From Raillietiella orientalis (taxonomy: Eukaryota): a DNA stretch of 64,000 nt. Position 1 is the first letter of the stretch. Each line of letters begins with the position of its first letter. The notes below the pieces were generated by a model. That model was given only the letters and a program-made list of their open reading frames with translations. It was not told where the DNA came from and did no database searches. The position numbers and the translations under genes are program-made. Of this stretch, positions 5,916 through 48,274 are shown piece after piece. The stretch lies in the NCBI GenBank assembly GCA_036172245.1, contig JAYWIR010000001.1, positions 7,998,001 through 8,062,000 on the forward strand, read 5' to 3'.

Positions 5916-5917
5916 TT

Positions 5918-7655: not shown

Positions 7656-7659
7656 ACCC

Positions 7660-13920: not shown

Positions 13921-14008
13921 TCGACACCGCAGATGCTTCACACACAATCACAATCCAAATAAATCGCTTTACACCAGGCGCGGAGGAGCGCTACAAAAAC
14001 ACGTCCGC

Positions 14009-16370: not shown

Positions 16371-16479
16371 GTCGAATCCCCGCTGTGGAGAGAGGACGTG
16401 CTTTTCCTGCGCTCCGCCTGCGTGGCAAGGCGAGTGGTTTTTTCTTGAGTGATTTGTGCGTGCATATCGTCGGTGTCCG

Positions 16480-23800: not shown

Positions 23801-24415
23801 CTTGGCGCCTGGAAGACGAGTGAGTTGGCGGACGCCGCCACTCCTCGTGTTACTGCAAAGGGACTCCTCCGGTGGGCAGAAGAACTTGCTGTCACCCCCG
23901 AAGAACTTGTAGTCCCTCTACAGTGTATTGACAGTTCGCTGCTCCCCCTTGCTTGGAAACAAGCCGTGCTGCTTTTCGTTCACTGGGGTTTTCAGTGCAA
24001 CGAGCGTTGGCATCGCTACTCCGGGGGACTTGCGTCTGCGAACTGCGTTCGGTGCGGATCGACGGAGTCGATTCCGCACCTACTTCTGGACTGCGGTGTC
24101 CTACAAGGACTGTGGCGTAGGCTGGCAACAGCACTAATGCATCCCGTGGACACCGCAAGAGACTTGCTGCCACGATTCTTCACGCCGAGCGGGCTGTCAC
24201 TAAGCGCAAGGATTGCAACCATCGGTTGCATACGCGCGATAGTTTCCGTCCGCCAGGCGTTGGTAATCAACGGACAGCACCAAGAGGTAATCAGCAAAGC
24301 ATCCTTCAACATGGGAGCATCCGCTAGATGGCCTCATTTGACAGAGGAGACAAAAAGGAATCTCGCCGCAATACACCGCCGGTTTACACACCCTCAGCAG
24401 CGGCCAACCCGGTGA
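20825..24415 (+). pseudogene. ORF2 APE-RT of E with a single nonsense codon
   Basis: ORFs 20825..23242 and 23276..24415 are in frame, separated by TGA at a conserved Trp (NALW); YTDD; CVRCGSTESIPHLLLDC. Confidence 0.92.
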
Positions 24416-25988
24416 TCATTGCCCTACCCTCCATAAACTATTTTTTTATTTTCTTTTTACATCCGCGTCCCCATAGCATATGGAACATTTTAGGTGCTCA
24501 TCGTTTAAATCCCCGTGAGTACGGAGCCTAACCAAAAACCCGTTACCCTTCCCTCCAGTTTTTGATTTTTGTTTGTTTCCCCTCATTCCTCCCACGCTGC
24601 GAGCGGTTTGTTTACCAGGCCTGCGTGCCGGTAATTTTTCTATGTTCCCTGTCGTTCTGTTGATTGGGGACATTGTCCCTGACCAGGTTTTTGTTATTAA
24701 TAAACGCCCCGGCTTGACCGGGTGATAAATTTCAATCTCCGCCTGCTAACATGTGAGCCGGGAACGCGAAAGAACGCGATGAACGAGTTGTGCGCCGCCT
24801 TGCGTGCGCGCAGCTTTTTCGCAATTGAGCGGGGAATGGTCCACAGCATCGTCTGGTCGATGCTGTGGACCTCGACACCGACCTTTGTTCGCGGGTCGGC
24901 AAGCGTAGGAGGGTTGCGTCGACGTTGTCGGACCATTCCCGGCTAATTTTCGAGATGCGGCCTCGCGACAAAGGACCGCCATCCAGGGACTGGCGTCTCC
25001 CCGGGGACTGGACGCGCATCTCAGGTGCAAAGGTACACCTTCGCGAATACCTGAGAGGCGTCACGCTCCGGAATCTCCAGGACTGGGACCTTTTTAAGGA
25101 ATCGGTCCGCGAGTTATGCGAGCAGTTCTCCCTGGATCGCCTGCCCTTCGGATTTGGCGAGGGTGCTCGCAACCATCGAGCATATTTACAGGCCCGTCGT
25201 TACGAGAGAACCCCAAATGTCCGTTGCTTGGCCGAGTACCGCGCTGGGGCCGAACGCCAAGCCTGGCAATCCGGGTCGGCCAGCTTGCTGGACGACCAGG
25301 GCCGGGAATGTTCGTCCCCGGTGTCGGTACGGCATCTCGTGAGAAGATTTTATTCATGCCTTTACGCCAGGACGCCTCCGTACCAAGATGCCTCTCGGCG
25401 CTTGTTCCCGGATGGTGCCCTGGGGATAGGGGAAGAGGAGTCGGTAAGCCTCGACGAGCCTTTCACTGCCGGTGAAATTCTCGCCAGTATCAAAAGGCTC
25501 AATAGGCGTATGGCGTCAAAGAAGGATACCTTGCCCGCGGAGTTCTTTCAGTGCTTCGAGGAAGAGCTTGCCCTCCTGCTGCTCGTGTTGACAAGGCTGA
25601 TCCGAGACGAAGGCGATGTTCCCGCCTCGTAAAGGTCAGCCAGAGTGAGGCTCCTTCCGAAAGGGGGAGACCTCAGGAAATTGCATAACTGGCGTCCGAT
25701 CACCATCGTGAACACGGACGCCAAGTTGCTAGCAGGGTTATGGGCTTCGCGTTTAGGGCAGGTGGCAGAGTCCATAATTAGCCCGGAGTAGACCTATGCT
25801 GTTCCCGGGCGAAGTATGGACGCCAACCTCTTCTTCGCAAGCACGTGGATGCACCTGCAAAGGAGAGAAAAGAAAGGGAAAGGGAAAATCGGCAACCCCA
25901 CATTGGGGCCGCCATTGGGGCTGGGAATGGACACCCGGGCGGAGAGGGGGGCCGTAGCGCTCGCAGTCGATCTCCATAAGGCGTTCGA

Positions 25989-28342
25989 TTTTCACCCGGA
26001 TTTCGCCGGGGCGTTTATTGTAAAATAAACTTTTACAAAGACGTGCGGTGGCTGGACCATTGCTCCAGCCACGCACGAAAAAACACAGAGCCTGCCGGGT
26101 CACCGGTTCGCAGACCGGTACGGTCCACCACGGCAGCAGGGGGAAGGGGGAAAAACAAAAAAAACAAAACAAAAAAGAAAAGAAAAATTGGGAGGGTAAG
26201 GGAAGGGATCACAGTTGCTGGTGGGGCCGTTGCATCCTTTGCAGGATGCCGGCAAGCTCCTTCTGTATTCCTGGATCCAGGTGGGGCCATCGGGACGCCC
26301 TCCTCAGGAACTGAGAGGCTGGCTGGATGGCACCCTGGTCGCGTTGTCCTTTCGTAGCCTTGCTTCAAGCGGTGACGATCCCGCGTAGGCAGCACAAAGC
26401 TGCTAACGAGGCCGCTGGCCGAAGGGCGTCGGCAACGAAGAGGGCTTTCAGTGCGTCCCTGGGGTTGCCGCAGGGGATTCCGATGGCCGCGGCAAAGCGA
26501 AACCAAAGGGGCCGAAGGGCAACACAATCCACTAGCAGGTGGGGGAGGGAATCCCGTTCCCCACACCTGACGCAATTGGGGTCCACCGTTCCCCAGGTCC
26601 AGTGGTGTCGGCGGGCGTTGCAGAAGAGTCCCCAGTGCTGCAACAGGAGAGCCGACTCCTGCCATTTTAAGGGTAGGGCGGAAGTGTTCATGAGCACCGG
26701 GGGCCACTTCAGATGTTCAATGGGAACATCGAGCAGCGCGCCCCAGCGCAGAAGTCCATTGGGAGGCGCACTCGGGGTCGCAGCGTCTGTTAACTGGCCC
26801 GTCTTCCACTCTCCTATCTTCTTCTCCTTTCCGGAGATTGTTACTGTTACCACCCACTTCGCCGCAACATCGCTGTCCAGATCTTCCATCAGGGAGGGCA
26901 GCGCAGCAGCGAGGGGGGTTCTTCCTGCCCACGCTCTCTTCTTTGTATCCTCCAGGATCTCGCGGAGCGTGCAACTTCTGTAACCCCCAAACAGGAACCT
27001 TCGTTCCTGTTGGGAGCGTTGCATGCCGAACTGTCCCACGTTCGAACGGTTTCCTGCAACCAGGCACTACCGTTAAACGGGCGACAGGTGAGCAATCCTG
27101 GGTTTTTCCGATACAACGCAGCCACCCTCCGTAGCTGGAGTCCGCATCGGTTGACGCGGCGACGGAGTGCAAGAAACGACGTCAGTCCCGTCTTGCCGGT
27201 GGCTTGCTGGAGAAGGAGACGTGCAGGGACGCACCAACAGGTGCACCACAACTCTGGAACGAGTGCCGACAAGCGGAACTGGAGCTGAAGCTCCAGCCGC
27301 TCCAGCGTCAGGAGGCCCAGACCACCATCCCGACGAGGAGCGCACAAGTCCTTTAAGCGGACTCGGGCCCTCCCGTTGCCCCAAAGGGCGATACGGAGGA
27401 GGTCCTTCGTCCGCTTTTTGATCCTCTCTGTGGGAGGGCGAACAAAAAGCAGGGAGCGGAGGAGAGGAGCCGCGAACGTGTTCCAAACCGCGGCCCGTTC
27501 AGGCAGGAAAAACCTGCCGCCTCGGAACGGGCCGATAGCCGTCTCTACTTTTTGGAGGCAGCCGGACCACGCTTCCGCAGGGGAGTAGTCCCCCAACGGC
27601 ACACCAAGGTACTTGAAGTACCTCACCGTGGGGATCCCCAAACGGACCCAGTCCTGCTGCCCTGCCCACGCCGCACCAACTGGCATCACGGACGACTTCT
27701 CCCTGTTCACCGTAAGTCCGGTTCCCCGATGCAGCAGGTCGAAGAACTCCTCGACCGCCGCAGCCGGGGTGGACATAGGGAGCAGCAGCAGAAGGTCGTC
27801 CCCGTATGCTGAAACGGCCGGAGTACCGGCACAGTCGGGCGGCAGGTGCGCCAGAGTTCCCCTGTACGCTCTCAGTACCAACTAAAAGTAGGTACTGAAG
27901 AGCAAGGGGCTCAGGCTGTCTCCCTGCCGGATCCCACGCCGCACCGGCACGCCGTGCACGGTCTGCCCGCTGGAAGTAACGTTGATGAGCGCGTCGCGCC
28001 AGCGGGAGCGCAGATAGGCCACAAATGAGGCCAGGAAGCCCAAGCGTTCCAGAAGCTCCAGAAGGAGATTCTGGTCGACGCAATCGAATGCTTTTCGCAA
28101 GTCGATTGCGACCGCAAGGGCTCCCTCCCCCACCCGACCATCCAACCCCTTGCCGGCGCATGCACCGGAATTCCGGCTGCGCACCAAGCTCCTTTCATGT
28201 TGGAGCTCTAGCCAGGTGGAAGCGTGGAACAGGTTCGCCTCCATGCTTCGCCCGGGAACAGCATATGTCTGTTCCGGGCTGATGAAGATGTTGGCAACCC
28301 GACCCAGACGCTCTGCCCAAACCTTAGCCAGCAACTTGGCGT
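25989..28342 (-). mobile_element. Subfamily B copy 1, distal part; antisense in KAFD of F2 and cut by A2 at DAKL
   Basis: 3' end aataaacgccccggcgaaatccgggtgaaa (minus, 25990-26019); RT motifs AKVWAERL, KAFD, QGDSLSP and YGDD; CVRCGERDSLPHL. Confidence 0.9.
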
Positions 28343-28370
28343 GCGGACGTGTTTTTGTAGCGCTCCTCCG
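28343..28370 (+). promoter_or_regulatory. Conserved 5'-terminal motif (G/A)GACGTG(T/C)TTT..CGCTC, putative internal promoter (example copy)
   Basis: Found within ~6 nt of the 5' end in 9 elements. Function is inferred. Confidence 0.6.
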
Positions 28371-28430
28371 CGCCTGGTGTAAAGCGATTTATTTGGATTG
28401 TGATTGTGTGTGAAGCATCTGCGGTGTCGA

Positions 28431-30452
28431 ATGGCAGAAATGCCTGAGGACACCGCGATGGATATAGGAGGGGGAGAGGCTTGCTCCTCTCCCCAACCCA
28501 CGGAGGTGGGGGCAATCGCCCATACGGAGGCGACGGCAGCCGCACCCCTGAAAAAGGGGGCAACCGCCGCCTCGAAAGCGAGGGCAAAGGCCCCCTTGAA
28601 AAAGGGGGCAAAAGCCCCGCTGGAACAGGGTGCAACCGCCCCCTTGAAAAAGGGGACAACCGCAACCCTGGAAAAGGGCGCAACCGCCTCCTTGAAAAAG
28701 GGGGCACCTGCACCCTCGAATGCGTCTTCGGCATCGCCGAAGACCTGGAGTTCAGTGGCTGCAGCCCCATCTCCTGCAGCCCTCGCCGAGCAGAAAGCCT
28801 ACCTGGAGCAGGGATACAAGCCGTCCCTGATATACAAGATAGGCAATCTGTTTGTCGGGAACACCGCTCGCAACTTCGAAAGGGAGTTGCAGCGGTTGAA
28901 CGTAAAAGAGGAAGACCTGGAAGGTCTTTCCGTGTTGAGTTGTGGTCAGCGGGTGGAGCTGACTTGCAGAAATGCAAGCCTTGCTCAACACCTCCTGAAT
29001 ACGCCAATCACACTGGAAGGCCGAAAGGTTTTCTTGGTGACGGAGGATCGCTCCGTGGTGACGCACCTCACGGGAGTCACCCTCCGCATGTCGAAAGCCG
29101 ACGTGCAGGAGGAACTCGGAAAATACGGAACGGTTCACGCGCTATGGCCCAAGCCCAACGTCTTCCAGAGTTACGGAAGACTGTTTAGTGGCATGGCTGG
29201 TGCGCGTGTAACCGTCCACGAAAACGGTGGGCTACCCCACAAACTAGACGTCGGCAACGAGACCGTCGACGTCTGGTACGTGGGCAAGCCCAAGTACTGT
29301 GGACACTGTGATGCCACAGGGCACCTGAAAAAGCGGTGCCCTCACATCCAGTGTTTCCACTGTGGAGAGAAGGGCCACCTCCGCAAAGTGTGCCCGAAGC
29401 GCGAACCTCCGGCTCCCGCTGCCTTGAAAAATTCCAAAGGGAAACGCGCGGAGGCTACGGAAAACCCTGCGAAGGCACCCGTGAGGCGGAACCCACAGCC
29501 GGAGCCCGAGACCGTGCAGCAAACGCCGGTCGTGGAATCTACCGACGACGCTGAAAAGAGAGAAGGCTGGCAGAAGGCGAAGCCTAAAGCCAAGAAAATT
29601 AAGAAAACCGAAGGGTCGACAGCGGAACCCGCGACGTCTCCTTTAAATAGGAGACAAAGCCGCGCGTTGATCCGCGAATGTTCGGTCGCTTTGGAGCGTG
29701 TGGAGGTACCCGAGACCGCCACCGGGGGCGATATCCCCCGCGTCGACGCCGACGATAACGCGATTGCGGAAGGCGAACCCTCTGTGCAAACAGAGGGGGA
29801 ACCGCGCGACGCGCTCGCCGCGATCGACGAGGCCGCCTTCCAGCAGGCGGCGGAAGAGCTCGCGGCCGAACTCGCCGACCGTGAGAACGGCGCGCGAAAG
29901 GCCTTGCGAAGGCCGGCCGCGACCAGGGCACCTCCGACAGGTGACCACGACCCGGATGCCGGAAGTGCGTCCTCTTCCACGGAGGCGCCTCCGAAGAAGA
30001 CTGGACGGAAGTCCAAGAATCCCAAGAGGCGCATCCCGACGAAGAGCGAGGGGGACGTACCGGCAGCCGAGGGGGAAGCCGGCAGCGTGGGAACGGAGGA
30101 AGGAATTTTCCCACCCTCCGCCACCGAGCAGCCGGCCACCCCCATGGAGGAGGGGGAGCAGGCAGGGCATTGCCTCCCCCTTCCACCGGTGGAGCCTGCG
30201 GAGAAGATGGTCATGGAAGAGGGGGAGCAGTCAGCTGAGAACCGCTCCCACCTGCCGTCCAACGCAGTCAAGGAATCGGCCCCCAAGGAAGAGGGGAAGC
30301 AGGTGCGTGAAGCATGCTCCCTTCAACCGTTGCGGTCCGCCGAGGAATCGGCCCCCATGGAGGTGGGAGAACCGCTGGGCGGTGCCCCCATGCCTCCATC
30401 CGTCCCGCCCGACCAGGTGGCGGGAGCCCCATTGCCACTTTCCCGGGAATAA
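28431..30452 (+). CDS. ORF1 of A2 (673 aa)
   Basis: Differs from A1 ORF1 at two residues in the ORF track; two CCHC knuckles. Confidence 0.9.
   Translation: MAEMPEDTAMDIGGGEACSSPQPTEVGAIAHTEATAAAPLKKGATAASKARAKAPLKKGAKAPLEQGATAPLKKGTTATLEKGATASLKKGAPAPSNASSASPKTWSSVAAAPSPAALAEQKAYLEQGYKPSLIYKIGNLFVGNTARNFERELQRLNVKEEDLEGLSVLSCGQRVELTCRNASLAQHLLNTPITLEGRKVFLVTEDRSVVTHLTGVTLRMSKADVQEELGKYGTVHALWPKPNVFQSYGRLFSGMAGARVTVHENGGLPHKLDVGNETVDVWYVGKPKYCGHCDATGHLKKRCPHIQCFHCGEKGHLRKVCPKREPPAPAALKNSKGKRAEATENPAKAPVRRNPQPEPETVQQTPVVESTDDAEKREGWQKAKPKAKKIKKTEGSTAEPATSPLNRRQSRALIRECSVALERVEVPETATGGDIPRVDADDNAIAEGEPSVQTEGEPRDALAAIDEAAFQQAAEELAAELADRENGARKALRRPAATRAPPTGDHDPDAGSASSSTEAPPKKTGRKSKNPKRRIPTKSEGDVPAAEGEAGSVGTEEGIFPPSATEQPATPMEEGEQAGHCLPLPPVEPAEKMVMEEGEQSAENRSHLPSNAVKESAPKEEGKQVREACSLQPLRSAEESAPMEVGEPLGGAPMPPSVPPDQVAGAPLPLSRE
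28545..28710 (+). repeat. Six coding repeats (L-K/E-K/Q-G-A/T-x-A, mostly 27-bp period) in the A ORF1 N-terminus
   Basis: ttgaaaaagggggcaaccgcc-like units; also at ~13640-13805 (minus) and ~44855-45025. Confidence 0.85.
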
Positions 30453-33400
30453 CACCTGGGATCGCCTGTCGCCGTCGATTGCGTGTGGCATGCTGGAACG
30501 TCCACGGGCTGCGCGACGACAGCAACAGACGGGACACGGCAGCCACCCTGCGTGACTTCGACCTGGCACTCCTGCAGGAGATCCACGTGATCACCGGGGA
30601 GAACGCCCAGGAGATCGAGAGGATCGCAGAAGGGCGGCTGGTGTGGCAATGCGGCACCCGATACACCTGCGGCGTCGCGTTTTTTATGAAACCGGCGGTC
30701 GACGCTGCCGTGAAGGGCGTGCGCTTCGACGAAGCCGGTCGTGTCGGGCAGCTGATTCTCAGATGGTCCGACACGATCGACCTCGTCGTAACAAACGTAT
30801 ACGCCCCGAGCGGTTATAACAGGTAACGGGAACGCGCGGCGTTCCTGGAAAGCGTGAAGCACGACTGGCTGGTGGAAGCGAACGTGCGCGTGGCTCACCT
30901 GATAGCAGGAGACTTTAATCTCCGCCTGCTATCAGGTGAGCCACACGCACAGGAACGGACGGCTAACGTGTTGTGCGCCGCCATGCGCACGCGCAACTTG
31001 TTAGGGGATCTTTCAAAAATGGTCAGCAGCATCGACCACGTCTTCCTGGACGTCGACCTGTGCTGGCGGGTCGGTAAACGGGGGAAAGTTGCGTCGGAAC
31101 TGTCTGACCATTCCAGATTGATACTCGAGGTGTGCCCGCGCGACAAGGGACCCACGTCCAGGGCGTGGCGGTTGCCTGGTGACTGGACGCGCCTCTCAGG
31201 TGCAAAGGAACACCTTCGCGAATTCCTGAGAGGCGTCACCCTCCCCGGTCTCAAAGATTGGGACCTCTTCAAGGCCTCGGTCCGCGAATTCTGCGAGGAG
31301 TTCCCCCTGCACCGCCTGCCCCCCGGATTTAAGTAGGGGGCTCGGAACCATAGGGCCTATTTACAGGCCCGCCGGTACGAGAGGACGCACAATGTACGTC
31401 GCCTGGCAGAGTACCGAGCCGGGGCCGAACGTCAAGCCTGGCAATCCGGATCGGCCAGCTTGCTGGACGACCAGGGCCGGGAGCACTTAGCTCCGGCTAG
31501 AATACGGCACATCGTACGGCGTTATTATTCCTGCCTTTACGCCAGGGCGCCCCCGGACCAAGATGCCTCTGGGCGCTCACTTCCGAGCGGTGCCCCGGCA
31601 ATATGGGAGGAGGAGAAGGAAAGTCTCGACGAGCCTTTTATCACCGGCGATGTTCTCGCCGGTATCCAAAGGCTCAAGAGGCGGAAAGAACCAGGGGAGG
31701 ACGGCCTGCCTGCGGAGTTTTTTCAATGCTTCGCGGCAGAGTTGGCACCCCTAGTGCTTGAGTTGACAAGGCTGATCCGAGATGAAGGCGATGTACCCGC
31801 CTCTTTTCGGTCAGCCAGAGTGAGGCTCCTTCCGAAAGGAGGAGACCTCAGGAAACTCAGCAACTGGCGTCCGATCACAATTGTGAAGACGGACGACAAG
31901 TTGATCGCCGGACTGTGGGCTTCGCGTCTGGGGCAGGTGGCCAATTCCATAATTAGCCCGGAGTAGACTTACGCTGTTTCCGGGCGAAGTATGTAGGCCA
32001 CCTCTTCTTCGCGAGCACATGGTTTCATGTGCAGAGTAGTGAAGGATTGGCAGCCCCGCTTTGGGGGCGTCAGCCGGGCAGGGACAGGACTCCCAGGTGG
32101 GGAAGGGAGCCTTAGCGATGGCAGTCGATCTGCATAAAGCGTTTCACTGCGTGGACCAGGATCTCCTGCTGGAGCTCCTGGGACGCATGGGCTTCCCTCC
32201 CTCCCTACTGACCTACCTGCGCTCTTGCTGGCGCAGCGCGCTGATCAATATCTCTTTCAGAGGTCAAATGGCGTACAGCGTGCCGGTACGGCGGGGCATA
32301 CGGCAGGGCGACAGCCTCAGTCCCCTGCTTTTTAGCACCTACTTTGAGTTGGTGCTGAGAGCGTATAGGGTGACGTTGGCCCCCTTGCCGAACTCGTGCC
32401 CCGGCAGGCCCGCCGTAGCAGCGTACGCCGACGATCTTCTGCTTTTGTTGCCGATGTCCATCCCGGCAAAGGCATTCGAGGATTTCTTCGACCTGCTTAA
32501 CCGCGGAACCGGACTGCAGGTTAACAAGGCGAAGTCGTCGGTGGTACCAGACGGTGCGACGTGAGCTTGGCAGCAGGACTGGGTCCGTTTGGGGATCCCC
32601 TCGGCAAGGTGCTTGAAGTACCTCTGTGTGCCGTTGGGGGATTACTCCCCTTCGGATGCGTGGTCCGGCTGCCTCCAAAAAGTGGAAACGGCGATCGGCC
32701 CGTTCTTGGAAGACAAGTTCCTGCTTCCGGAACGGGCCGCGGTGTGGAACTCCTTTGCGGTTCCCATCCTCCGCCCCCTGCTTTTTGTTTGCCCCGTCCC
32801 CAGGGACATGAAGAAAAGGACGAAGGACCTCCTGAGGTTTTCCCTTTGGGGAAGAGGGAGGCCCCGAGTCCATTAGAAGGACTTGTGTGCTCCACGTTGG
32901 GATGGCGGTCTGAGCCTCTTGACGCTGGAGAGAGTAGAAATCCAGCTGCGATGGCGCACCCTGGCCATCGCAGCGAAGTTATGCAGCAACCCATGGTGCG
33001 TTGAGGCCCGACTCCTTGCCAGCCGTGTATCCGGAACGGAAGGTCTGGCGTCTCATCTTCTGTGCCGCCACTCGAAGATCAAGAGATGCGGACTCCTCCT
33101 GGGACGCAAGGCAACCCTGGCAAACGAAAACGGCTGGATGGAATGCAGCCCCGCCAACTCCTCCGCATGGTTGGAGGAGACAGCTGGCACGTGGGCGAAG
33201 ATAAACCAGAAGAACGGAGAGATGTGGAACTGCCTGCGACGCGGCGCCTATTCCCGCTACACTCTGCGGATGATACTCCAGTGTCCCGCGAGAAGCACGT
33301 GTGCAGAGACAACCCCCCTAGCTACGGCGATGCCCTTCCTGAGGAGGGCGCTCTCCAGGAGCCGCAAGCCTAGGTGGCAAGTCTCCTGCCGCATCGCAGG

Positions 33401-34021
33401 CAAGGAGAAGTTGATCAGCGGCTGGTCCACGGGCGAACTGGCGGACGCCAGTACCCATAGTGTACAGGCGAGAGGACTGCAGAGATGGGGCGAGCTACTC
33501 GGCATCCAGCCGGATGACCTGAAGTGGCCCCCGGTATTAATTGGATCTAGGATCCTCCCCCTGAAGTGGCAGGATTCGGCGCTTCTGTTGTTGCATTGGG
33601 GTCTACCCTGCAACGCACGCCGCCACCACTGGACCAGGGGTCGAGTAGATCCTACCTGCATCAGGTGTGGGGAACGGGAAACTCTCCACCACCTCCATGT
33701 TGATTGTGCTGCCTCCGGCCCTCGTGGGAACATCTTCGTGCCTCCCTACGGATCCAGGAAGGCTGCAAGCCCAGAGACGTTTTTCGGCTTCTGTTCGTGC
33801 ATGATGCCCTGCGTCCAGCCGCTACCCTGACTGCACTTTGCCGCGTACGCGGGATTGTGACGTGCTGGAGCAACGTCAGAAGACCGAGGCACGACAGGGA
33901 TACCGCCGTACTTGCAGTCCGCTACCTGCGGATTGCGACCAGATGGCCCCACCTGGGAAATATACGCACGGACCTCGAGCGCATCCTGCCAAGGATGGAC
34001 CCTCCTCCCAGTGGTCAGTGA
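30452..34021 (+). pseudogene. ORF2 APE-RT of A2, disrupted
   Basis: All APE/RT motifs are in order, with stops at 30826, 31336, 31966, 32876 and frameshifts. Confidence 0.92.
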
Positions 34022-34228
34022 TCCCTCCCCAACCCTCCCAAATCTTTTTGTTTTAATGTTTTATTTTTCTTTTTGTTTTTTCCCCCACCCCCTTCCGCTG
34101 CCGAGGAGAGTCGCGCCGGTCTGCGTACCGGCGACCCGGCAGGTCCAGTTGAGTTGGCCGCAGTGGGGCCTCGTACCGCGAATGAAAGAGAATTTTTAAT
34201 AAACGCCCCGGCGTGACCGGGTGGCAAC

Positions 34229-37200
34229 TAGCAACTTGGCGTCCGTATTCACGATCGTGATCGGACGCCAGTTCTTTAAATCCCTAAGGTCTCCCCCTTT
34301 CGGAAGGAGCCTCACTCTGGCTGACCGAAACGAGGCGGGAACATCACCTTCGTCTCGGATCAGCCTGATCAACTTAAGCAGCAGGGGTGCCAGCTCTTCC
34401 GCGAAGCTCTGAAAGAACTCCGCGGGCAAGCCGTCTTCCCCTGGAGCTTTACGCCTTTTGAGCCTTTTGATACGGGCGATAATTTCGCCGGTGGTAAAAG
34501 GCTCGTCGAGGCTTTCCATCTCCTCCTCCCCTATTGCCGGGGCGCCATCCGGAAGCAAGCGCCGAGAGGCGTTTCGATCCGGGGGCTCCCTGGCGTAAAG
34601 GGAGGAATAAAAACTCCGCAAGAGATGCCGTACCGACGCCGGGGAAGAACATTCCCGGCCCTGGTCGTCCAGCAAGCTGTCCGACCCGGATTGCCAGGCT
34701 TGGCGTTCGGCCCCGGCGCGGTACTCGGCCAGGCGACGGACATTAGGGGTTCTCTCGTACCTACGAGCCTGTAAATAGGCCCGATGGTTGCGAGCAGCCT
34801 CGCCGAATCCGGGGGGCAGGCGATCCAGGGGGAACTGCTCACAGAACTCGCGGACCGATTCCTTAAAAAGGTCCCAGTCCTGGAGATTCCGGAGCGTGAC
34901 ACCTCTCAGGTATTCGCGAAGGTATTCCTTCGCACCTGAGAGTCGCGTCCAGTCCCCCGGCAGACGCCAATCCCTGGATGGCGGTCCCTTGTCACGAGGC
35001 CGCATCTCGAAAATTAACCGCGAATGGTCCGACAACGTCGACGCAACCCTCCCCCGTTTGCCGACCCGTGAACACAGGTCAGCGTCGAGGAAGACGTGGT
35101 CGATGCTGCGGACCATTCCCCTCTCACCCGCGAACAAGTTGCGCGCACGCATGGCGGCGCACAACTCGTTCATCGCGTTCTCTTGTGTTTCTGGCTCACC
35201 TGATAGCAGACGGAGATTGGAATCTCCCGCTATCAGGTGAGCCTTCCGCACGTTCGTGTCCGCCAGCCAGTCGCGCTTCAGGGAATCCAGCAGCCTGGTA
35301 CGGTCGCTGTATCCCTGTTTACCACTGGGGGCGTACACATTCGTGACGATCAATTCGATCGAGTCGGACCAGCTGAGAATCAGCTGACCGACCCGACCGT
35401 CGTTATCGAAGCGCACGCCCTTCACGGCCGCGTCGATGGACGGCTTCACGAAGAACGCGACTCCGCAGGTGTTACGGAGGCCGCACCGCCAATACAGCCG
35501 ACCCCCCGCGATCGTTTCGATCTCCTGGGCGTCTGCCGCGGTGATCACGTGGATCTCCTGCAGCAGGGCCAGGTCGAGCTCACGCAGGGTGTCGGCCGTA
35601 TCTCGCCTGTTACCGTCGTCGCGCAGTCCGTTGACGTTCCAACAGGCGGCGCGAATCCGACGGCGACTGGCGAGCCCAGGTGTTATTCCTGGGAAGATGG
35701 CGATGCGGCGTCCGCCACCTGCTGGGGCGGGACGCTAGGTGGAGGAGGAGGGTCAGGCGCTGCGTGCACCTGGTCCCCCTCCTCCATGGGTAACGGCGCG
35801 TCGAGGGGGTCACCCTTGAGTGGGGTGGCGCCTACCTGTTGGCCCTCCTCCATGGGGGCGGGCTGTTCAGGCTCGGCGACTGCAGGGAGGACTTCGCCCC
35901 CCTGCTCACCCTCCTCCATGGGGGTGGCCGGCTCGAAGGCTTCCGCGCGTGGGAGTTCCCCCTCCGGGATTCCCACGCTACCGCTACCTTCCTGCTTCTC
36001 CTCCTCGCTGGTGGAGGGGAGGCGCCTCCTGGGTTTCTGGGACTTGCGTCCCGACTTCCTGGGGGTGCCTCCGAGGAGGAGGATGCACTTCCGGCCCCCA
36101 GGTCCGACTCACCTGTGGGGGCCTTTTTCGCGGGAGCCGGCCTTCGCACGGCCTTGCGTGAGGGGTTCTCACGCTCCGCCAGCGTGGCCGCGAGCTCCTC
36201 CGCCGCCTTTGCGAACGCGGCGTCCGCAGTGTCGACCGGCGCGTCGCGCGGCTCACCCTCTGTGTAAACAGAGGGTTTGCCGTCGCGAACCTCGGGCGCG
36301 GCGGAAACGGCGAGGGAATTCTCGTCGCCCCGGGTGGCAATCTCGGGAACGGCTATGCGCTCCAGTGCTACCGTACACTCCCGCATGGTCTTAGAGCGCG
36401 GCCCAGGTTTTTTCGCCTTGCCGGCTGTCTTTTTTACCGCTTTTGCGGGTTCCGCGGGGGGCACCGTTTTCTCCTTCCTGGCCTTGACCAGCTGCCAGCC
36501 GTCTTGGACTCCCGCGTCTTCGGAGGGTTTTTCTTCCGACGCCTGTGTGGGAGGAACAGGGGCTAGCGGCTGCTGCCGGCCAGTATCTCTTTTTGGTCTT
36601 TCGACCAGTTTACTGCGTTTTGCCTGTGCTTTTTTTGCAGCAGGCGGCACCGGAGTGGGGTGTTTAGGGCATGCGCGGCGTACGTGGCCCTTCTCCCCGC
36701 ATAAGTGGCACACAATGTTTGCGCACCGCTTGCGCAAGTGTCCTACTGCATTGCAGTAGCCACAAAAGCGGGGTTTCCCCACGTACCAGAGGTCTACGAC
36801 TTCGCCATTGACCTCTAGTTTGTGGGGAAGCCCACTGTCGTTCACCGTCACGCGCGCGGCGGCCTGCCCTCCGAAAAGGCTATCGTAGCCATCGAAGATT
36901 GTGGCCTTTGGCCAAAGCGCGTGAACATCCCCGTACTTTCTTAACTGATCACCAACCGCAGACCGCGTCATGCGGCTGGTGATCCCTGTCAGATGGACCA
37001 CTACGGAGCGGTCCATCGTGACTGGTAGGATCTTGCGTCCGTTCACGTTCAGCGGGGTGGTTATCAAGCTTTGCGCCAAGGTGATGTCCTTGCAGACAAC
37101 CTCAACGCGCTGACCCCCGCTTAGCACGGATAGACCGTCAAGGTCCTTTTCTAACACGTTGGCGTTCTGCAGCGCTTTCGAAAAAGCGCGTGCAGTTCGC

Positions 37201-37526
37201 CCGTCAAAGAGATTGCCTACCTGGTAAACCAAGCTGGGCTTGTACCCAGCTGCCCGGTAGGCCGCCATCTCGGCCATGGTTTCCGCGCTCGGCGCGGCCA
37301 CCATGGCGCTCCAGCTCCTCGCCTTGAGCGGCAAGGGCGATTCCGGGGCGGACGCCCCTGATTCTGTAGGCTGTGGGGGTGGGCAAGCCTCCCCCACACC
37401 TACCTCCATCGTGGTGTCCTCAGGCATCGCTGCCATCGGACACCAACGATGTTCCACACCAAACAACACAAGAAAAAACCGCTTCCTGTCGACTCACTCG
37501 GGAGCGAAGGAAAAACACGTCCACTC
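34229..37526 (-). mobile_element. Subfamily F copy 3, proximal half (5' end, ORF1, APE, start of RT), cut by A2 at DAKL
   Basis: 5' gagtggacgtgttttt at 37526; ORF1 37436-35683 with one frameshift near 36065; ORF2 open from 35683 to NTDAKLL at ~34230. Confidence 0.92.
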
Positions 37527-39560
37527 GCCAAGGGATTCGGCGACGGGGCTCGCAACGAACGCGCGTATTTGCACGCGCGTCATCACGAGAGGAACCCCAA
37601 TGTCCGTCGCCTGGCCGAATACCGCGCCGGAGCCGAGCGACAAGCTAGGTAATCAGGGTCAGCCAGCATGCTGGATGACCTGGGCCGGGAACGTTCGTCC
37701 CCGCCTGCGGTACGGAATCCCGTGCGGTGTTTTTATTCCTCCCTTTACGCCAAAACACCACCCGAACAAGACGCCTCGCGGCGATTGCTCATGAGTGGTT
37801 CCGTGGCGATAGGGGAGGAGGACAAAGAAAGCCTCGATGAGCCTTTCACGACCGGTGAAATTCTCGCCGGTATCAAAAGGCTCAAGAGGCGTAAGGCGCC
37901 AGGGGAGGACGGCTTGCCCGCGGAGTTCTTTCAGAGTTTCGCGGAAGAGCTGGCCCCCCTGGTGCTCGAGTTGACAAGGCGAATCCAAGACGAAGGCGAT
38001 GATCCCGCCTCGTTTCGGTCAGCCAGGGTGAGGCTCCTCCCGAAGGGAGGAGACCTCAGGAAACTTTGCAACTGGCGTCCGATCACGATTGTGAACACGG
38101 ACGCCAAGTTGATTGCCGGGCTGCGGGCGTCGCGATTGGGGCAGGTGTCCAATTCCATAATTAGCCCGGAGCAGACTTACGCTGTTCCCGGGCGAAGTAT
38201 GGAGGACAACCTCTTCTTCGCGAGCACATGGATGCACGCGCAGCGGAGTAATAAAGAAGGGAAAGGGAAAATTTGCAACCCTACTTTGGGGCCGCCAGTG
38301 GGACAGGGAAGGCACCCTCATGCGGGAAAGGGGGTTTTAGCGATCACAGTCGACCTCCATAAGGCATTCGACTGTGTTGACCAGGAACTCCTCTTGAAGC
38401 TCCTGGGTCGCATGGGCTTCCCACCTTCCTTGATTACCTACCTGCGCTCTTGCTGGCGGAACGCGATAATCTCGATTACTTTCAGTGGACAAAAGGTGTA
38501 TGGCGTGCCGGTGCGGCGGGGCATAAGGCAGGGCGACAGCCTCAGCCCCCTGCTTTTTAGCACCTACGCTGTGTTGGTGCTGAAAGCGTACAGGGTGACT
38601 TTGGCCCCCTTGCCGAGCTCGTGCCCCGGCACGCCAGCCGTAGCGGCGTATGCCGACGATCTTCTGCTCCTCTTACCTATGTCCACCCCGGCTAAGGCGG
38701 TCGGAGATTTCTTCGACCTGCTTAGCCGTGGGGCCGGATTACAGGTTAACAGGGCGAAGTCGTCAGTGTTGCCAGTTGGAGCGACGTGGGCAGGGCAGCA
38801 GGACTGGGTCCGTCTGGGGATCCCCACGGTGAGGTGCATGAAGTACCTCGGTGTGCCGTTGGGGGACTTCTCCCCTGCGGAAGCGTGGTCCAGCTGCCTC
38901 CAAAAAGTCGAGACGGCGATCGCCCCGTTCCTGGAAGGCAAGTTTCACTTGCCGGAACGGGCCGCGGTTTGCAACGCCTTCGCGGCCCCCATCCTCCGCC
39001 CCTTGCTTTTTGTTTGCCCCGCCTCCGTGGAATCAAAAAAGCGGACTAAGGACCTCCTCCGCATAGCTCTTTGGGGCAAGGGGAGGCCCCGAGTCCCTTT
39101 GAAAGACTTGTGCGCTCCGCGTCGGGACGGCGGTCTCAGCATCCTGACGCTGGAGCGCGTGGAAATCCAGCTGTGATGGCGGACCCTCGCCATCGCAGCG
39201 AAGATGTGGAGCACCGCTTGGTGCATTCCGGCCCGCCTCCTGGCCAGGCGTGTGTCCCGCTGCGAAGGACTCGCATCGTTTCTTCGGCATTCGATTGGAT
39301 GACCTGAAGTGGCCCCCGGTTCTACTTGGATCCAGGATTCTCCCCCTGGAGTGCCAAGGATCGGCGCTTCTGTGGCTGCATTGGGGTCTACCCTGCAACG
39401 CGCGCCGCTTCCACTGGACGCGGGGAAGAGTAAATCCTGCGTGTGCCAGGTATGGGGAGCTGGAGTCGCTTCCCCACCTCTTAGTTGAATGCCCTGCCGT
39501 CGGGATTCTTTGGGATCGTCTGAAAACGGCCCTCCGGATACCGGATGGTGGCAATGTTGA
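37527..39560 (+). mobile_element. F-related ORF2 fragment (I) starting at PKGFG, with an internal deletion
   Basis: ORF 37668..39176 holds a complete RT core (APGEDG, KAFD, QGDSLSP, YADD). Sequence jumps near 39285 to LKWPP...HWG; no 3' end. Confidence 0.88.
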
Positions 39561-40591
39561 ATGTATCTTCAGTCTTGTCTTCGTCGGCAGTCTTTTCCAA
39601 GAGCTCCTGTACCGAGTCCCTTTCCTGCTGCGCGACTTTTGTCGGAGCCGACGGCTAATCCCCTTTTGTGGAGTTTATCACTATTTTTGCCTTCCTTTCC
39701 TTCTTTTGCGGAAGTTCCGGCATTGGAGCGACGTTCTTCGGGCACACCACTTTGGTGTGGCCCTTCGCGCCGCACGTTGGGCAAACTGCGTCCGGGCACC
39801 GCTTTTTCAAATGCCCGAACGACTTACAGTTTCCACAAAATTTAGGTTTCCCCACAAACCAAATGTCGACGAACTCGTCGCCAATTTGGAGCTTGTGGGG
39901 AAGCTGTACGCTTTCTCGAAGCGTCACGCGCGCGCCTATTCGCCCACTAAATGCACCATTCACTCTGAAGGTGTTGGGCTTTCTCCACATCGCGAAAACG
40001 CTTGCGAATTTTTCGAGTTCAGCGCGGATGGCGTTCTTATCCATCCGCACTGTTGTCGTTGTTAGGTGGACCACAATGGAGTGGTCCACCGTGTGTGGGA
40101 GTAAATTCCTGCCCTCAAATTGTACGGGCGTGCAGAGCATCTTGTGGGTAAGAGCTGCATCCTTGCAGATGAGCTCCGCCAACTGCCCTCCGCTCCGTAT
40201 AGAGAGGCAAAGAATTTCATGGTCGGCAATGCCCATCTTTCTGATGGCATTGCCGAACTTTCGCGCCCTTAACGGGGAATATAAATTTCCTACCTTGTAC
40301 AGGAGGGCCGGATTGTAGCCCTCCTGGATGTAGGATTGGATTTCGGCGGCGACATCGGGCGTTTCCGCCGCTGCCACCGCGCTCCAGGCCCTCGCCGTAG
40401 TGGCGGGTTCAGAATTAGTGGTGGGGCGTGATCCCACCTCCATTGGCTTGGGAAACGCGGTCTTTCCGCCTCCCTCACCTGAAACTGCGGCGTTCACAGG
40501 CATTTCTGCCTGTCAGCGGCCGCGAAACACACACGAAACACCAGAAAAGAAAAACTCCCTATCCACGGAGCGCACAACAATTGCGTCCGCC
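39561..40591 (-). mobile_element. Subfamily J 5' fragment (5'UTR and ORF1 39655..40503)
   Basis: Variant 5' motif ggcggacgcaattgttgtgcgctcc; knuckles CGNCKSFGHLKKRC and CPTCGAKGHTKVVC. Confidence 0.82.
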
Positions 40592-41888
40592 GTACAACGC
40601 GCAGTCAAGCGCTCAACGCGCGCGGTGTTCTTTGCCCGCGGGCGCGTTTTTCCCGTATCGGGCGAACGACCGCATTCCGCGCCGCTCGTCGAGGCCTTGG
40701 TACGAGGCTTCGCGGTCGTGATGCCGACAGTACGAGGCTCTTTGACCTTCGGCACAATGTCTCCTGCATTCAACAATTGGCTGCGAGGTCTCGTAGAAAG
40801 GTCGCATTCTTCGCGAGCTTCCTTCAGGTCGATAGCCGGAGGCTTTGCCGCGACGAGTTTTTTTGTGTTTTTCACCCCTTCTTTGTGGGGGCGAGAAACA
40901 GTTGTCTGCACGTGCGTGGTCGCGGTTTTCGCAACGCTTTTCGGAGCTTTGATGTTTCTTTCTTTCGATTCGCGGCGATTATTCCGCAATGCGGAACGCG
41001 ATTCGTTCCTGCGCTTTTCGTTTTTTAAAAGGAGCTCCGGGCACGTTCCTTTAGTGTGCCCGTGCTCGTGGCAGTAAAAGGAAAGCGGCCGAGGGACACT
41101 TCGTAATGCGGTGACCCTCCTGCCCGCATTCCGCGCATACACGCGTTTGCCCGGCAAACCACAGGCGGACGGTCATTCCATCCACCTGCAGTCGCGTGGG
41201 CATTGCACGGCGATCCGTCAACGTCACTCGCACTGGCGCGAGCCCGCTGTGGTGGTCTTCGAACCCTTCAGCAGGGTTTGGCAGCCTCCAAAGCGCGTGG
41301 ACGGTAGCGTATTTTTCAAGGGCCTCCACGACCTGGAGGTCCGAAAGGCCCTTACACACTCCACTGAGACGGACAACGAACGACTGGTCCGTTGTGACAG
41401 GGAGTATTTCCTGCCCACGAATGCGCAGCGGCGTGTGCAGCAAACGCTGCGTAAGGAGAGCGTCCTTACTGGACACCTCCCAGTAGCCGCACCCACTCAT
41501 GGGCATGATGGACTTCAGTAGGCCTTTTTGAACTCCAATCCGTTGGAGTTCCTGGCCAAACTCGCGCCCAACCCGCTCAGGCATGAGGACACTTACCTTA
41601 TACCTGAGTGCAGGCGTGTAGCAATTTGATACATACGCCTGAAGCTCAGGGCTGTCGGGCGAAGGTCCCATCGTAGCCGCGAGGGCAGCGACCTGGGCGA
41701 ATATCCTCGCCGTCGGCGAGGACAGAGGCTCCTTACTAGCAGCCGAAGCAGCCATCTCAGGAGCAGGTGGCGTTCCCTTCTTGCGGCTGATGTTCTTCTT
41801 TGCTCCCATTGCAGCACAGAAGCACAGCAGAACAAAAACACACAAGAGCCAATCTACCGCGGAGCGACAAAAAAGCACGTCCGTACGC
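40592..41888 (-). mobile_element. Subfamily H 5' fragment (5'UTR and frameshifted ORF1)
   Basis: 5' tacggacgtgctttttt..cgctcc; CAECGQEGHRITKC, with the second knuckle frameshifted near 41075. Confidence 0.82.
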
Positions 41889-42286
41889 GACCGTCGCTGA
41901 TGCGTGAGACGGGAGATGTTCCCGCTTCTTTCCGCTCAGCAAACGTGCGGTTCCTGCCGAAAGGCGGGGATTTCCGCCATCTCAGCAACTGGCGTCCGAT
42001 CACCTTGGTGAATTCGGACGTCAAGTTGTTCTCCAAGCTATGGGTCGCGCGCATGGGGAGAATTTCGGAGTCCTTGGTAACTCCGGAGTAGACGTATGCT
42101 GTTCCGGTGCGGTCCAAGGACGCGAATCTCTTCTTCGCGCGAACATGGTTCGAGTTGCAGCGGCGCGTGGCGCAACAGAGCCAGACAGCCGAAATCGCCG
42201 CTGCCAAAGGTAAGCGGCGGTGTTCAAGGTACGATGGAACGCCGGGAGCCCTAGCGATCGCAGTCGATCTCCACAAGGCGTTCGAT
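41889..42286 (+). mobile_element. C/E-like RT fragment (K), bounded by H and B2 insertions
   Basis: MRETGDVPASFRSA, NWRPITLVNSDVKLF, and AVDLHKAFD at the right end. Confidence 0.85.
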
Positions 42287-44652
42287 TTTCACCCGGATTT
42301 CGCCGGGGCGTTTATTATAAAACAAACATTTACAAAGACGTGCAGTGGCTGGACCATTGCTCCAGCCACGCACGAAGAAACACAGAGCCTGCCGGGTCAC
42401 CGGTTCGCAGACCGTTACGGTCCACCACGGCAGCAGGGGGAAGGGGGAAAAACAAAAAAAAAAAAAACAAAACAAAACAAAAAAGAAAAAGAAAAGTTGG
42501 GAGGGTAAGGGAAGGGATCACAGTTGCTGGTGGGGCCGTTGCATCCTTTGCAGGATGCCGGCAAGCTCCTTCTGTATTCCTGGATCCAGGTGGGGCCATC
42601 GGGACGCCCTCCTCAGGAACTGGGAGGCTGGCTGGATGGCACCCTGGTCGCGTTGTCCTCCCGTAGCCTTGCTCCAAGCGGTGACGATCCCGCGTAGGCA
42701 GCACAAAGCTGCTAACGAGGCCGCTGGCCGAAGGGCGTCGGCAACGAAGAGGGCTTTCAGTGCGTCCCTGGGGTTGCGGCAGGGGATTCCGATGGCCGCG
42801 GCAAAGCGAAACCAAAGGGGCCGAAGGGCAACACAATCCACTAGCAGGTGGGGGAGGGACTCCCGTTCCCCACACCTGACGCAATTGGGGTCCACCGCTC
42901 CCCAGGTCCAGTGGTGTCGGCGGGCGTTGCAGGGGAGTCCCCAGTGCTGCAACAGGAGAGCCGACTCCTGCCATTTTAAGAAGAGGGCGGAAGTGTTCAT
43001 GAGCACCGGGGGCCACTTCAGATGTTCAATGGGAACATAGAGCAGCGCGCCCCAGCGCAGAAGTCCATTGGGAGGCGTACTCGGGGTCGCAGCGTCTGTT
43101 AACTGGCCCGTCTTCCACTCTCCTATCTTCTTCTCCTTTCCGGAGATTGTTACTGTAACCACCCACTTCGCCGCAACATCGCTGTCCAGATCTTCCATCA
43201 GGGAGGGCAGCGCAGCAGCGAGGGGGGTTCTTCCTGCCCACGCTCTCTTCTTTGGATCCTCCAGGATCTCGCGGAGCGTGCAACTTCTGTAACCCCCAAA
43301 CAGGAACCTTCGTTCCTGTTGGGAGCGTTGCATGCCGAACTGTCCCCACGTTCGAACGGTTTCCTGCAACCAGGCACTACCGTTCAACGGGCGACAGGTG
43401 AGCAATCCTGGGTTTTTCCGATACAGCGCAGCCATCCTCCGTAGCTGGAGTCAGCATCGGTTGACGCGGCGACGGAGTGCAAGAAACGACGTGAGTCCCG
43501 TCTTGCCGGTGGCTTGCTGGAGAAGGAGACGTGCAGGGACGCACCAACAGGTGCACCACAGCTCTGGAACGAGTGCCGACAAGCGGAACTGGAGCTGAAG
43601 CTCCAGCCGCTTCAGCGTCAGGAGGCCCAGACCACCATCCCGACGAGGAGCGCACAAGTCCTTTAAGCGGACTCGGGCCCTCCCGTTGCCCCAAAGGGCG
43701 ATACGGAGAAGGTCCTTCGTCCGCTTTTTGATCCTCTCTGTGGGGGGGCAAACAAAAAGCAGGGAGCGGAGGAGAGGAGCCGCGAACGTGTTCCAAACCG
43801 CGGCCCGTTCAGGCAGGAAAAACCTGCCGCCTCGGAACGGGCCGATAGCCGTCTCTACTTTTTGGAGGCAGCCGGACCACGCTTCCGCAGGGGAGTAGTC
43901 CCCCAACGGCACACCAAGGTACTTGAAGTACCTCACCGTGGGGATCCCCAAACGGACCCAGTCCTGCTGCCCTGCCCACGCCGCACCAACTGGCATCACG
44001 GACGACTTCGCCCTGTTCACCGTCAGTCCTGTTCCCCGACTCAGCAGGTCGAAGAACTCCTCGACCGCCGAAGCCGGGGTGGACATAGGGAGCAGCAGCA
44101 GAAGATCGTCCGCGTATGCCGAAACCGCAGGCGTACCGGGAAAATCGCACGGCAGGTGCGCCATAGTCTCCCTGTACGCTCTCAGCACCAATTCGAAATA
44201 GGCGCTGAAGAGCAGGGAGCTCAGGCTGTCTCCCTGCCGTATGCCGCGTCGCACCGGTACGCCGTACACGGTGGATCCACTAAAAAAAACATTAATAAGC
44301 GCGTCGCGCCAGCTGGAGCGCAGGTAGGCCAGCAAAGAGGCCGGGAAGCCCAAGCGTTCCAGAAGCTCCAAAAGGAGATTCTGGTCGACGCAATCGAATG
44401 CTTTATGCAAATGGACTGCGACCGCGAGAACTCCTCTCCCCTCCCGACCATACCGTCCCCCACCGACGGACGCACCGGAATTCCGGTTGCTTATTATGCT
44501 CCTTCCTTGTTGGAGCTCTAACCATGTGGAAGCGTGGAACAGGTTCGCCTCCATGCTCCGCCCGGGAACAGCATAAGTCTGTTCCGGGCTGATGAAGATG
44601 TTGGCAACCCGTCCCAGACGCTCTGCCCACATCTTGGCTATCAACTTGGCGT
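42287..44652 (-). mobile_element. Subfamily B copy 2, distal part; antisense in KAFD of K and cut by A3 at DAKL
   Basis: Same 3' end as B1 (42287-42317); RT with YADD; ORF 42518..43435 with CVRCGERESLPHLLVDC. Confidence 0.9.
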
Positions 44653-44740
44653 GCGGACGTGTTTTTTCCGCGCTCCTCTGCGCCTGTTGTAAAGCGTTCT
44701 TTTTCGGTAGTGGTTGTGTGTGGAGCATCTGCGGTGTCCA

Positions 44741-46762: not shown

Positions 46763-46952
46763 CACCTGGGCTCGCCTGTCGCCGTCGATTACGCGTGGCC
46801 TGCTGGAACGTGAACGGGCTGCGCGACGACGGCAACAGACGGGACACGGCCGCCACCCTGCGTGACTTCGACCTGGCACTCCTGCAGGAGATCCACGTGA
46901 TCACCGCGGAGAACGCCCAGGAGATCCAAAGGATCGCAGGGGAACGGTTGAT

Positions 46953-48033
46953 TGTCACCCGGGTGCGCCGGGGCGTTTATTATAAACTATCCGGGAACAG
47001 GGTTCCCGGACAAAGGGGAAAACAAGAGACGAAGGGGGTGGGATCCCCGACACGCAGGTAGGTATGACGAAAGTCCGGAACGGGAGGGAAGGGACCACAA
47101 ACACACTACTATATAAAAAAATAAAAGAAAAATATGGAGGGCAGGGGACAGGGCTCTTTGGTGAGTCCGTTCCTTCCTTTCAAAACCGGCGATGGATGCC
47201 GGCGATCTCTCTCCTTACGCCCTGTGGCAGATGGGCCCACTGGGCAGCCGACGACATGTTTGCGCTGGCTAATCCGGTGGGCTGACGAAGGATGGCCAGC
47301 TTCTCCAACTCTCGGTGGGCCATGTCGATGGCGCGGGTGCAACACACGGTTGCAACGACAGCACCCAATGACAGGCCGCCTGGCGTGAAGAAGCGGCGCA
47401 TCAACTCCCTCGCGGTGTCCCCCTGGTGCAGGAGAGCTGAGGCCAGCCTCCGCCAGAGTCCTAGAAGGGCACCGCAGTCCAGGAGCAGGTGCGGGAGCGT
47501 TTCCACTTCCCCGCACCGCTTACAGTTTGGGGAGACGACTACCCCTTAAACAAGGTTCGTGCGCTGGTTGGAGTGAAAACCCCAATGCACCAGAATAATC
47601 ACGTCCTGCTTCCACGAAAGGGGGAACACAGAAGTGTTCAGACACGAGGGAGGAACCACAAGTTCTTCAAGGGGCACACTCAAGTGTTCGCTCCACCGAA
47701 GGAGTCCCTTCGGAACGTGGTGAGGTGTGGCGGCGTCCGCCAGCTCGCAAGTCTTCCAGACGCCAATAGGTCGCGTTGTTCCTGCGATGGTGCAGGCGAC
47801 CTCCCATCTCGCCGGTTCGCAACTGTCATCTCTTGCCCTGAGGGCTGACAGTGCGTCTTCGAGGGGGGTGACGGCCAGGCGGGTCCACTTCTCCTGGCTG
47901 TTGCACACCTCATCCTCCGTGCAGTACGGGGAGAGGTGAGCGCAACGGAGTTCCAGGAGGGAAACATCCTGGTGCTTTGCCCAGCCATGCAACGGTTCCT
48001 GCCGCCAGGCTTCAAAGTTCGTTGGGCGGTAGT
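46953..48033 (-). mobile_element. Subfamily C copy 1, 5'-truncated (~1.08 kb)
   Basis: Near-identical to the 3' end of C2; flanked by target copies g(a/g)acggttgat at 46939-46952 and 48034-48047. Confidence 0.93.
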
Positions 48034-48274
48034 GGGGGACGGTTGATTGTCACCCGGGTGCGCCGGGGCGTTTATTATAAACTATCCGGGAACAGGGTTC
48101 CCGGACAAAGGGGAAAACAAGAGACGAAGGGGGTGGGATCCCCGACACGCAGGTCGGTATGCCGAAAGTCCGGAACGGTAGGGAAGGGACCACAAACACA
48201 CTACTATATAAAAAAATAAAAGAAAAATATGGAGGGCAGGGGACAGGGGTCTTTGGTAAATCCGTTCCTTCCTT

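Follow-up and report, generated by a model that had tools for sequence, protein, structure and literature searches.

How does the same terminus of one retrotransposon come to lie on the same nucleotide of two different host elements? A 64,000-nt stretch of the Raillietiella orientalis genome (contig JAYWIR010000001.1, positions 7,998,001 to 8,062,000; hereafter the window, from which all of the evidence comes) raises this question. It contains a ~56-kb nest of L1-like long interspersed nuclear elements (LINEs), whose first open reading frame (ORF1) encodes CCHC knuckles and whose second (ORF2) encodes APE and reverse transcriptase (RT) domains. One of them, B, is a minus-strand LINE with its 3′ tail at the KAFD codons of ORF2, antisense to both of its hosts, here called F and H2. 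The best reading, and in our judgement a probable one, is that two B copies entered F and H2 independently by sequence-directed insertion.

The KAFD junction and its two hosts

The two junctions are formed by the following segments (aa, amino acids of the encoded protein; UTR, untranslated region; TSD, target-site duplication):

24729-25989, plus strand: host F, part of a LINE named D/F (ORF2 aa ~182-588) with an in-frame TAG; ends in the KAFD codons at 25978-25989
25990-28342, minus strand: 3′ part of the first B copy, B1 (3′ UTR, ORF2 aa 1203-491); 3′ tail at 25989/25990
34230-37523, minus strand: 5′ part of B1 (ORF2 aa 503-6, ORF1 and the 5′ start, the reverse of GGACGTGTTTTT at 37511-37523)
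41888-42286, plus strand: host H2, ORF2 aa ~455-588 of an E/Z-like LINE; ends in the KAFD codons at 42275-42286
42287-44652, minus strand: 3′ part of the second B copy, B2 (3′ UTR, ORF2 aa 1203-~482); TSD copy ATCAACTTGGCGT at 44640-44652

As the original prediction had it, one junction recurs at 25981 and 42278: the 39-nt string formed by GCGTTCGA and TTTTCACCCGGATTTCGCCGGGGCGTTTATT occurs exactly twice on the plus strand, at 25981-26019 and 42278-42316, without a mismatch, and did not occur in any of 100 shuffles. To the left it consists of the final bases of the codons AAG GCG TTC GAT, encoding KAFD of RT motif A in plus-strand ORF2 fragments; to the right it is a LINE 3′ end (AATAAACGCCCCGGCGAAATCCGGGTGAAAA) in reverse complement. 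This terminal motif also closes 10 further elements of the window (nine, plus the degenerate end of an element called X3 below). The exact break is uncertain by up to 3 nt (25988-25991) because the host reads GAT T... where the reversed tail has its run of T. Both B 3′ ends in the window thus lie at KAFD, at the same nucleotide and in the same orientation, in different hosts.

The assignment of the hosts to two subfamilies, also predicted, is borne out by the tree and by pairwise identities. The loops quoted for them are present (TWMHLQRREKKGKGKI in F and TWFELQRRVAQQSQ in H2, a fragment of just 0.4 kb). In a FastTree phylogeny, H2 groups with Z and E and F groups with H3, G and X3 (support 1.000). 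F and H2 are 60% identical (210/352) up to the last 45 alignment columns but match in 39 of those 45, in agreement with the claim that they are closely similar only over the last ~40 bp. The nearest relatives are closer than that: F and H3 share 88% and H2 and Z share 76%, and the KAFD sites of H3 and Z are uninterrupted. Both hosts thus have relatives with an empty KAFD site that are nearer to them than they are to each other, which excludes simple segmental duplication of a host-plus-B unit. The window has 11 KAFD sites, of which nine are empty; the 12-mer AAGGCGTTCGAT is present at both occupied sites and at one of the nine empty ones (Z), and the target sequence seems to matter here. Thus, the prediction that B inserted twice at KAFD holds for a discrete element end in different hosts that plain duplication did not produce; its step to two independent insertions goes further than these results.

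Both hosts also carry a stop codon upstream of KAFD: the conserved CAG codon of SPEQTY is TAG in three of 11 copies from two clades, at ~25778 in F, at ~42078 in H2 and at the equivalent position in X3. This looks like a parallel C-to-T change, presumably in a CHG-type context.

The conserved block next to the junction invites a rival explanation, which the original prediction had named as the finding that would undo it. B would have inserted once, and the second junction would have arisen by homologous exchange (crossover or conversion) of the host-B locus with a B-less LINE of another subfamily, with a break in the last ≤45 nt, the codons AVDLHKAFD. Recombination among copies is documented in the window, so this exchange is kept as a live rival, although we consider it unlikely. 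The block is the best conserved of the region, as the 39/45 matches against 60% upstream illustrate, and maximum chi-square tests for a switch from Z-like to F-like sequence put the break 44 nt ahead of the junction in three of the four parent pairs, the lowest p value being 0.04. However, the four p values (0.04, 0.14, 0.36 and 0.82) are not significant after four comparisons, and the nearest mismatch between H2 and F lies 13 nt from the junction. Over the last 45 nt, H2 is equally near Z and F (39/45 each), has private states within the block and matches H3 at 40/45, with 36/45 for F and Z and 34/45 for F and E. Judged from this alignment, the similarity of the hosts next to the junction is apparently ordinary motif conservation across all subfamilies and not a sign of shared origin. 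Moreover, exchange is documented where copies are nearly identical over long distances (200 bp at 100%), whereas the homology here is imperfect and 12-45 nt long, and an exchange at KAFD would leave unexplained the same behaviour of another element, X, at another site. Recombination in the AVDLHKAFD block therefore finds no positive support.

Element X and exchange between copies

Independent insertion at one base gains weight from X, of which the window holds three copies:

8204-14008, minus strand: X3, full length, at the VNxDAKL site of a third host, H3 (flanking 13-mers at 8191-8203 and 14009-21, 11/13 alike; tblastn map)
28343-34229, plus strand: X1, full length, antisense at the VNxDAKL codons of B1 (perfect 13-bp TSD AGCAACTTGGCGT at 28330-28342 and 34230-34242)
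44653-46942, plus strand: first part of X2 (ORF1, ORF2 to aa 76), which resumes at 53733-54384 after an insertion named Y/Z and is then cut by the LINE W

All three copies begin directly after ...CAACTTGGCGT, the antisense of VNxDAKL codons. X thus occupies one exact nucleotide at all three 5′ ends and at both visible 3′ ends (X1 and X3 end at the same base), in 5′-flanking hosts of three kinds: a W-like segment (X1), B2 (X2) and H3 (X3). At X1 the duplicated target AGCAACTTGGCGT matches over all 13 bp, at X3 over 11 of 13. Relatives keep the site empty. In W, which shares 93-99% identity with the host sequence to the left of X1, a perfect 13-mer stands empty at 62217, and F has another at 25718. 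Since W and F keep empty X sites, the X junctions cannot all descend from one composite. X is the same phenomenon as B at KAFD, with better evidence. A stop at the GFG codons (GFK*GAR) is common to X1 and X3, and a 24-nt tandem repeat of 8-aa, KKGA-like units lies in the N-terminal part of X-type ORF1 (28460-28744 and 44770-45078).

Exchange between copies has left clear traces inside the elements. B1 and B2 are 97.5% identical (1436/1473) over 25989-27461, from the tail to 27461, and W, the nearest relative of B at the 3′ end, reaches 70-80%. B1 is a mosaic: 25990-27461 is B2-like, 27462-27662 is identical in B1, B2 and W, and 27662-28342 is W-like (93-99%); beyond X1 (34230-37523) it resembles D/F (86-87%), with just 68% identity to W. 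The subfamily thus changes twice, once within the 200 bp that B1, B2 and W share without a difference and once precisely where X1 is inserted, which suggests crossovers between same-site copies in different hosts. Over the first ~2.65 kb from the 5′ end (28343-31000 against 14008-11350), identity between X1 and X3 is 100%; it then drops to ~94% and further to ~80%, a step pattern that reflects either in-situ gene conversion or recombinant source elements. For this pattern and the B1 mosaic together, crossover between copies of the same element in different hosts is the simplest account. Such a crossover shuffles flanks; it cannot make a new junction between an element end and a host.

B1 cannot be read as a simple insertion. 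The 5′ start of B1 (37523) adjoins LINE G at ORF2 aa ~299 and not a continuation of F past KAFD; G is 81% identical to F over the 840 bp in which they overlap and is not its continuation. The window ends before the 5′ half of B2, which is nested under X2 and W, and the eight 5′ starts identified in the window all lie away from KAFD sites. A scan of genome contigs with the 3′-end motif returned 36 loci, all bacterial or archaeal; none had a tblastn match to ORF1 or ORF2 or a blastn match to the B 3′ region, and they were set aside as chance matches.

Because host, B and X are nested in the same order in both copies, the whole composite might be an old segmental duplication (offset ~16.3 kb) in which later conversions refreshed B and replaced one host. 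A single BLAST high-scoring segment pair does join 25596-30629 to 41896-46939 (87.6%), and the 5′-ward part of B and X diverge alike (~83-85%). Identity across this homologous ~5-kb block is strongly discontinuous, however: per 100 columns it rises from 44-70% in the host to 97-99% in the B 3′ part and falls to 62-96% beyond, so that divergence differs between the two sides of the junction, where a duplication would make it alike. Closer relatives with empty sites exist for both F and H2, W lacks X despite its 93-99% identity to the segment of B1 flanking X, and the account would require three or more additional conversions with their limits at element ends. We regard this history as very unlikely.

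The same identical tracts bear on the assembly. Dense repeats with tracts of 97-100% identity favour mis-assembly, and reads mis-joined in the repeat nest could in principle mimic a repeated junction. Mis-joins are expected within long identical tracts and not at the terminal base of an element where the adjoining host is unique and diverged; the host context at either junction is intact and in frame, and we rate an artefact as very unlikely. Two inversion products were considered and rejected. An L1 twin-priming inversion does not apply, as the antisense partner adjoins the B 3′ terminus instead of an internal point and belongs to another subfamily; snap-back inversions are ruled out on geometry.

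The nest around the two sites

Both sites lie in sequence of ~60% GC that extends from ~8.2 kb to the window end and consists almost entirely of copies of one LINE superfamily; the left 8 kb have 41-50% GC. A six-frame tblastn map, made with an intact ORF2 (1203 aa, 48275-51886, minus strand) and an ORF1 (683 aa, 28404-30452) as queries, tiles the region with LINE fragments on both strands. In the left flank (1-8200), which marks the edge of the nest, there is no long ORF, and ORF2 is represented only by weak, old fragments (28-48% aa identity). The remaining features are:

14009-16370, plus strand: 3′ part of H3, host of X3; its 3′ tail at 16370 adjoins an antisense remnant ...GGATTCGAC (ORF2 aa ~299-306) at 16371-16393
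16394-18825, plus strand: first part of LINE D/F (5′ start GGACGTGCTTTT, ORF1, ORF2 aa 6-172; 5′ start motif at 16394, tblastn map)
18826-24728, plus strand: LINE E, full length, inserted in sense in the GDFN codons of D/F (TSD ATTTCAATC at 18817-18825 and 24729-24737; APE and RT domains in Pfam)
37524-39534, plus strand: LINE G from ORF2 aa ~299 (ACTCGCCAAGGGATTCGG...), adjoining the B1 5′ end
41093-41887, minus strand: LINE M, an ORF1 fragment and 5′ start (41871-41883), the left bound of H2 at host ORF2 aa ~455
46943-53732, minus strand: Y/Z insertion in X2 (TSD CGCAGGGG at 46935 and 53733)
54385-64000, minus strand: W, the closest relative of the middle part of B1; no insertion at its X site (62217) or its KAFD site (61970)
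55041-60530: V, full length, interrupting W (TSD AGCAGTGCCGAC)

D/F, a full-length element, is the same element as host F, split by E: 17779-18825 and 24729-25732 match the contiguous segments 36254-35215 and 35223-34228. Within Y/Z, Y (5′-truncated at aa 922) and the full-length Z stand head to tail on the minus strand and have a 1094-bp repeat in common (96.8%). G lacks aa 895-1037 and at 39534 adjoins a minus-strand ORF1 fragment with no LINE 3′ end; 39285-41093 is rearranged.

The elements share one architecture. In Pfam, the ORF2 of Z matches Exo_endo_phos (E = 5.9e-16) and RVT_1 (E = 1.2e-22), and both domains are also found in E. The closest solved structure to ORF2 is human L1 ORF2p (8sxt_A, E = 9.9e-44; APE domain 7e-7). 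A database protein search with the Z ORF2 gave 23 matches, the nearest being unnamed proteins of ~25% identity; the source genome contributed none. A fixed 5′ start, GGACGTGYTTTT, is common to the elements (seven exact matches; the start of V is a variant), as is a fixed 3′ end of AATAAA, a CCCGG/CCGGG hairpin and a short tail, in detail AATAAACGYCCCGG, a 4-6 nt loop, CCGGGT and a 4-15 nt tail. None of the 11 LINE 3′ ends seen has a poly(A) run. In an alignment of 3′ ends, the five pairs of the hairpin are essentially invariant, with no compensatory two-sided change, a pattern that counts neither for nor against the structure, and an Rfam scan of the whole window gave no match. The elements therefore have the APE and RT domains and the TSDs of the APE-type L1-like class (13 bp for X1, 9 bp for E, 12 bp for V and 8 bp for Y/Z) and lack its poly(A) tail. 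The duplications that flank E, V and Y/Z identify these as insertions by target-primed reverse transcription (TPRT).

Between 8.2 and 64 kb, 13 LINE-in-LINE relations were parsed, 12 of them antisense, with E in D/F as the only sense insertion; counted by distinct site, antisense exceeds sense by 7 to 1. This bias may be mechanistic, or it may reflect survivorship, since sense insertions create direct repeats, which recombination removes.

A third recurrent site lies at ORF2 aa ~299-306 (..GGATTCGRC), at 16371-16393 and 37524-37545. At the former, the H3 3′ tail and the D/F 5′ start flank a 17-24 nt antisense remnant, forming a head-to-tail pair; the H3 3′ tail adjoins ...GGGGATTCGAC at ORF2 aa ~305. 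The 5′ flank of B1 in G (ACTCGCCAAGGGATTCGG, aa ~299-305) agrees with the KAFD flank at 11 of 18 positions, a match equalled by only 0.15% of the 18-mers in the GC-rich part. Junctions other than those of B at KAFD thus adjoin sequence of a similar kind, a point in favour of sequence-directed insertion.

Proposed targeted insertion compared with known systems

Two targeted insertions are favoured because X recurs at one exact site in three hosts while the sites of relatives are empty. For random insertion, with a ~6-kb element and either orientation, we estimate the probability of hitting the same base twice at about 1e-4. From the observed element ends, the identical junction in different hosts, the TSDs of other elements and the recurrent X site, we infer that the two B junctions are separate events and that a targeting mechanism produced them. 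B copies that are 97.5% alike in old hosts (76% between H2 and Z) are most simply explained by late entry of a young element into hosts that were already old.

In the mechanism that we propose, L1-like LINEs would insert into one another by TPRT, and two copies of B, one young lineage, would have entered two old, unrelated LINE copies. Both would have done so in antisense, priming from the host sense strand nicked right after ...AAGGCGTTCGA(T) in the KAFD codons. The site might be chosen by the nick specificity of the endonuclease, with a preference for ...GGNRTTCGAY. Alternatively, the nicked sense strand might pair with the 3′ end of a B RNA that carries a few bases of the previous copy's flank. 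In site-specific LINEs of the R1/R2 type, an RNA 3′ end with flank bases pairs to the nicked DNA; by inspection, no general complementarity was found here between RNA tails and nick sites. Conserved catalytic-motif codons exist in every subfamily, and homing to them would yield the same junction in different hosts. Full-length B copies would then carry a fixed-length TSD starting TCGAACGCC.

Several observations count against two targeted insertions. For B itself, the window offers neither a TSD nor an empty-versus-filled pair, with the B2 5′ end outside it and G as the 5′ flank of B1, and it contains just two B-type 3′ ends. Recombination between copies is frequent (the three-part B1 mosaic, the X1/X3 steps and the aberrant right end of G), and X sits at the same site in both B copies, as a duplicated composite would also give. 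The family is not strictly site-specific, as W and other elements occupy unrelated sites (aa 76, 285, 455 and 1066). Finally, TTCGAY occurs 3-5 times per element on the sense strand and alone cannot define the target.

Extending targeted insertion beyond B is possible but more doubtful, and we do so tentatively. A LINE lineage may recognise RT-motif codons of rival LINEs (KAFD, VNxDAKL and a similar GFG site) through its endonuclease or its RNA 3′ end and insert in antisense. It would thereby find a harmless landing pad, knock out a competitor and build nested, mostly full-length arrays like those that mark centromeres in some algae.

Sequence-specific LINEs such as R1, R2, the Tx1 group and TRAS/SART target rDNA, snRNA genes, and telomeric or microsatellite repeats. 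The elements described here resemble them in the use of one exact position in a fixed orientation with precise 5′ and 3′ junctions, in frequent full-length copies, in head-to-tail reuse of a regenerated target and in the choice of a multicopy, conserved target. Unlike in those systems, the target is the RT-motif coding sequence of sister LINEs, and specificity looks partial, as the related W, V, Y/Z, M and E lie at other sites; ORF2 is L1-like and not R2-like. A literature search on self-insertion and site-specific nested LINEs found nothing on RT-motif targets. With human LINE-1, the top match among solved structures, the elements share APE and RT domains, TSDs and two ORFs; they differ from it by a 3′ end of AATAAA and a 5-bp hairpin in place of poly(A) and by an ORF1 with CCHC knuckles.

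The closest parallel for the nest as a whole is Zepp/ZeppL of green algae, described as L1-type, centromere-associated LINEs that pile up by nested self-insertion (PMC8226300; a 2025 CENH3 preprint; a 2024 Chlorella preprint), mostly as 5′-truncated 3′ ends (PMC8226300). These accounts, in the portions available, name no base-level target and do not state how the elements find their own copies. Judged by such descriptions and not by sequence, the nest is like Zepp/ZeppL in its insertions into same-family copies within a local cluster (13 relations); it is unlike the Zepp arrays, as far as they are described there, in that most of its elements are full length, and it differs from Zepp/ZeppL in lacking poly(A). 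Self-targeting LINE clusters such as Zepp/ZeppL are already known. If our reading is correct, base-level, motif-specific antisense homing would supply a concrete, testable target rule for such clusters and explain why arrays stay confined, and the safe haven of a retrotransposon would be the catalytic core of its competitors.

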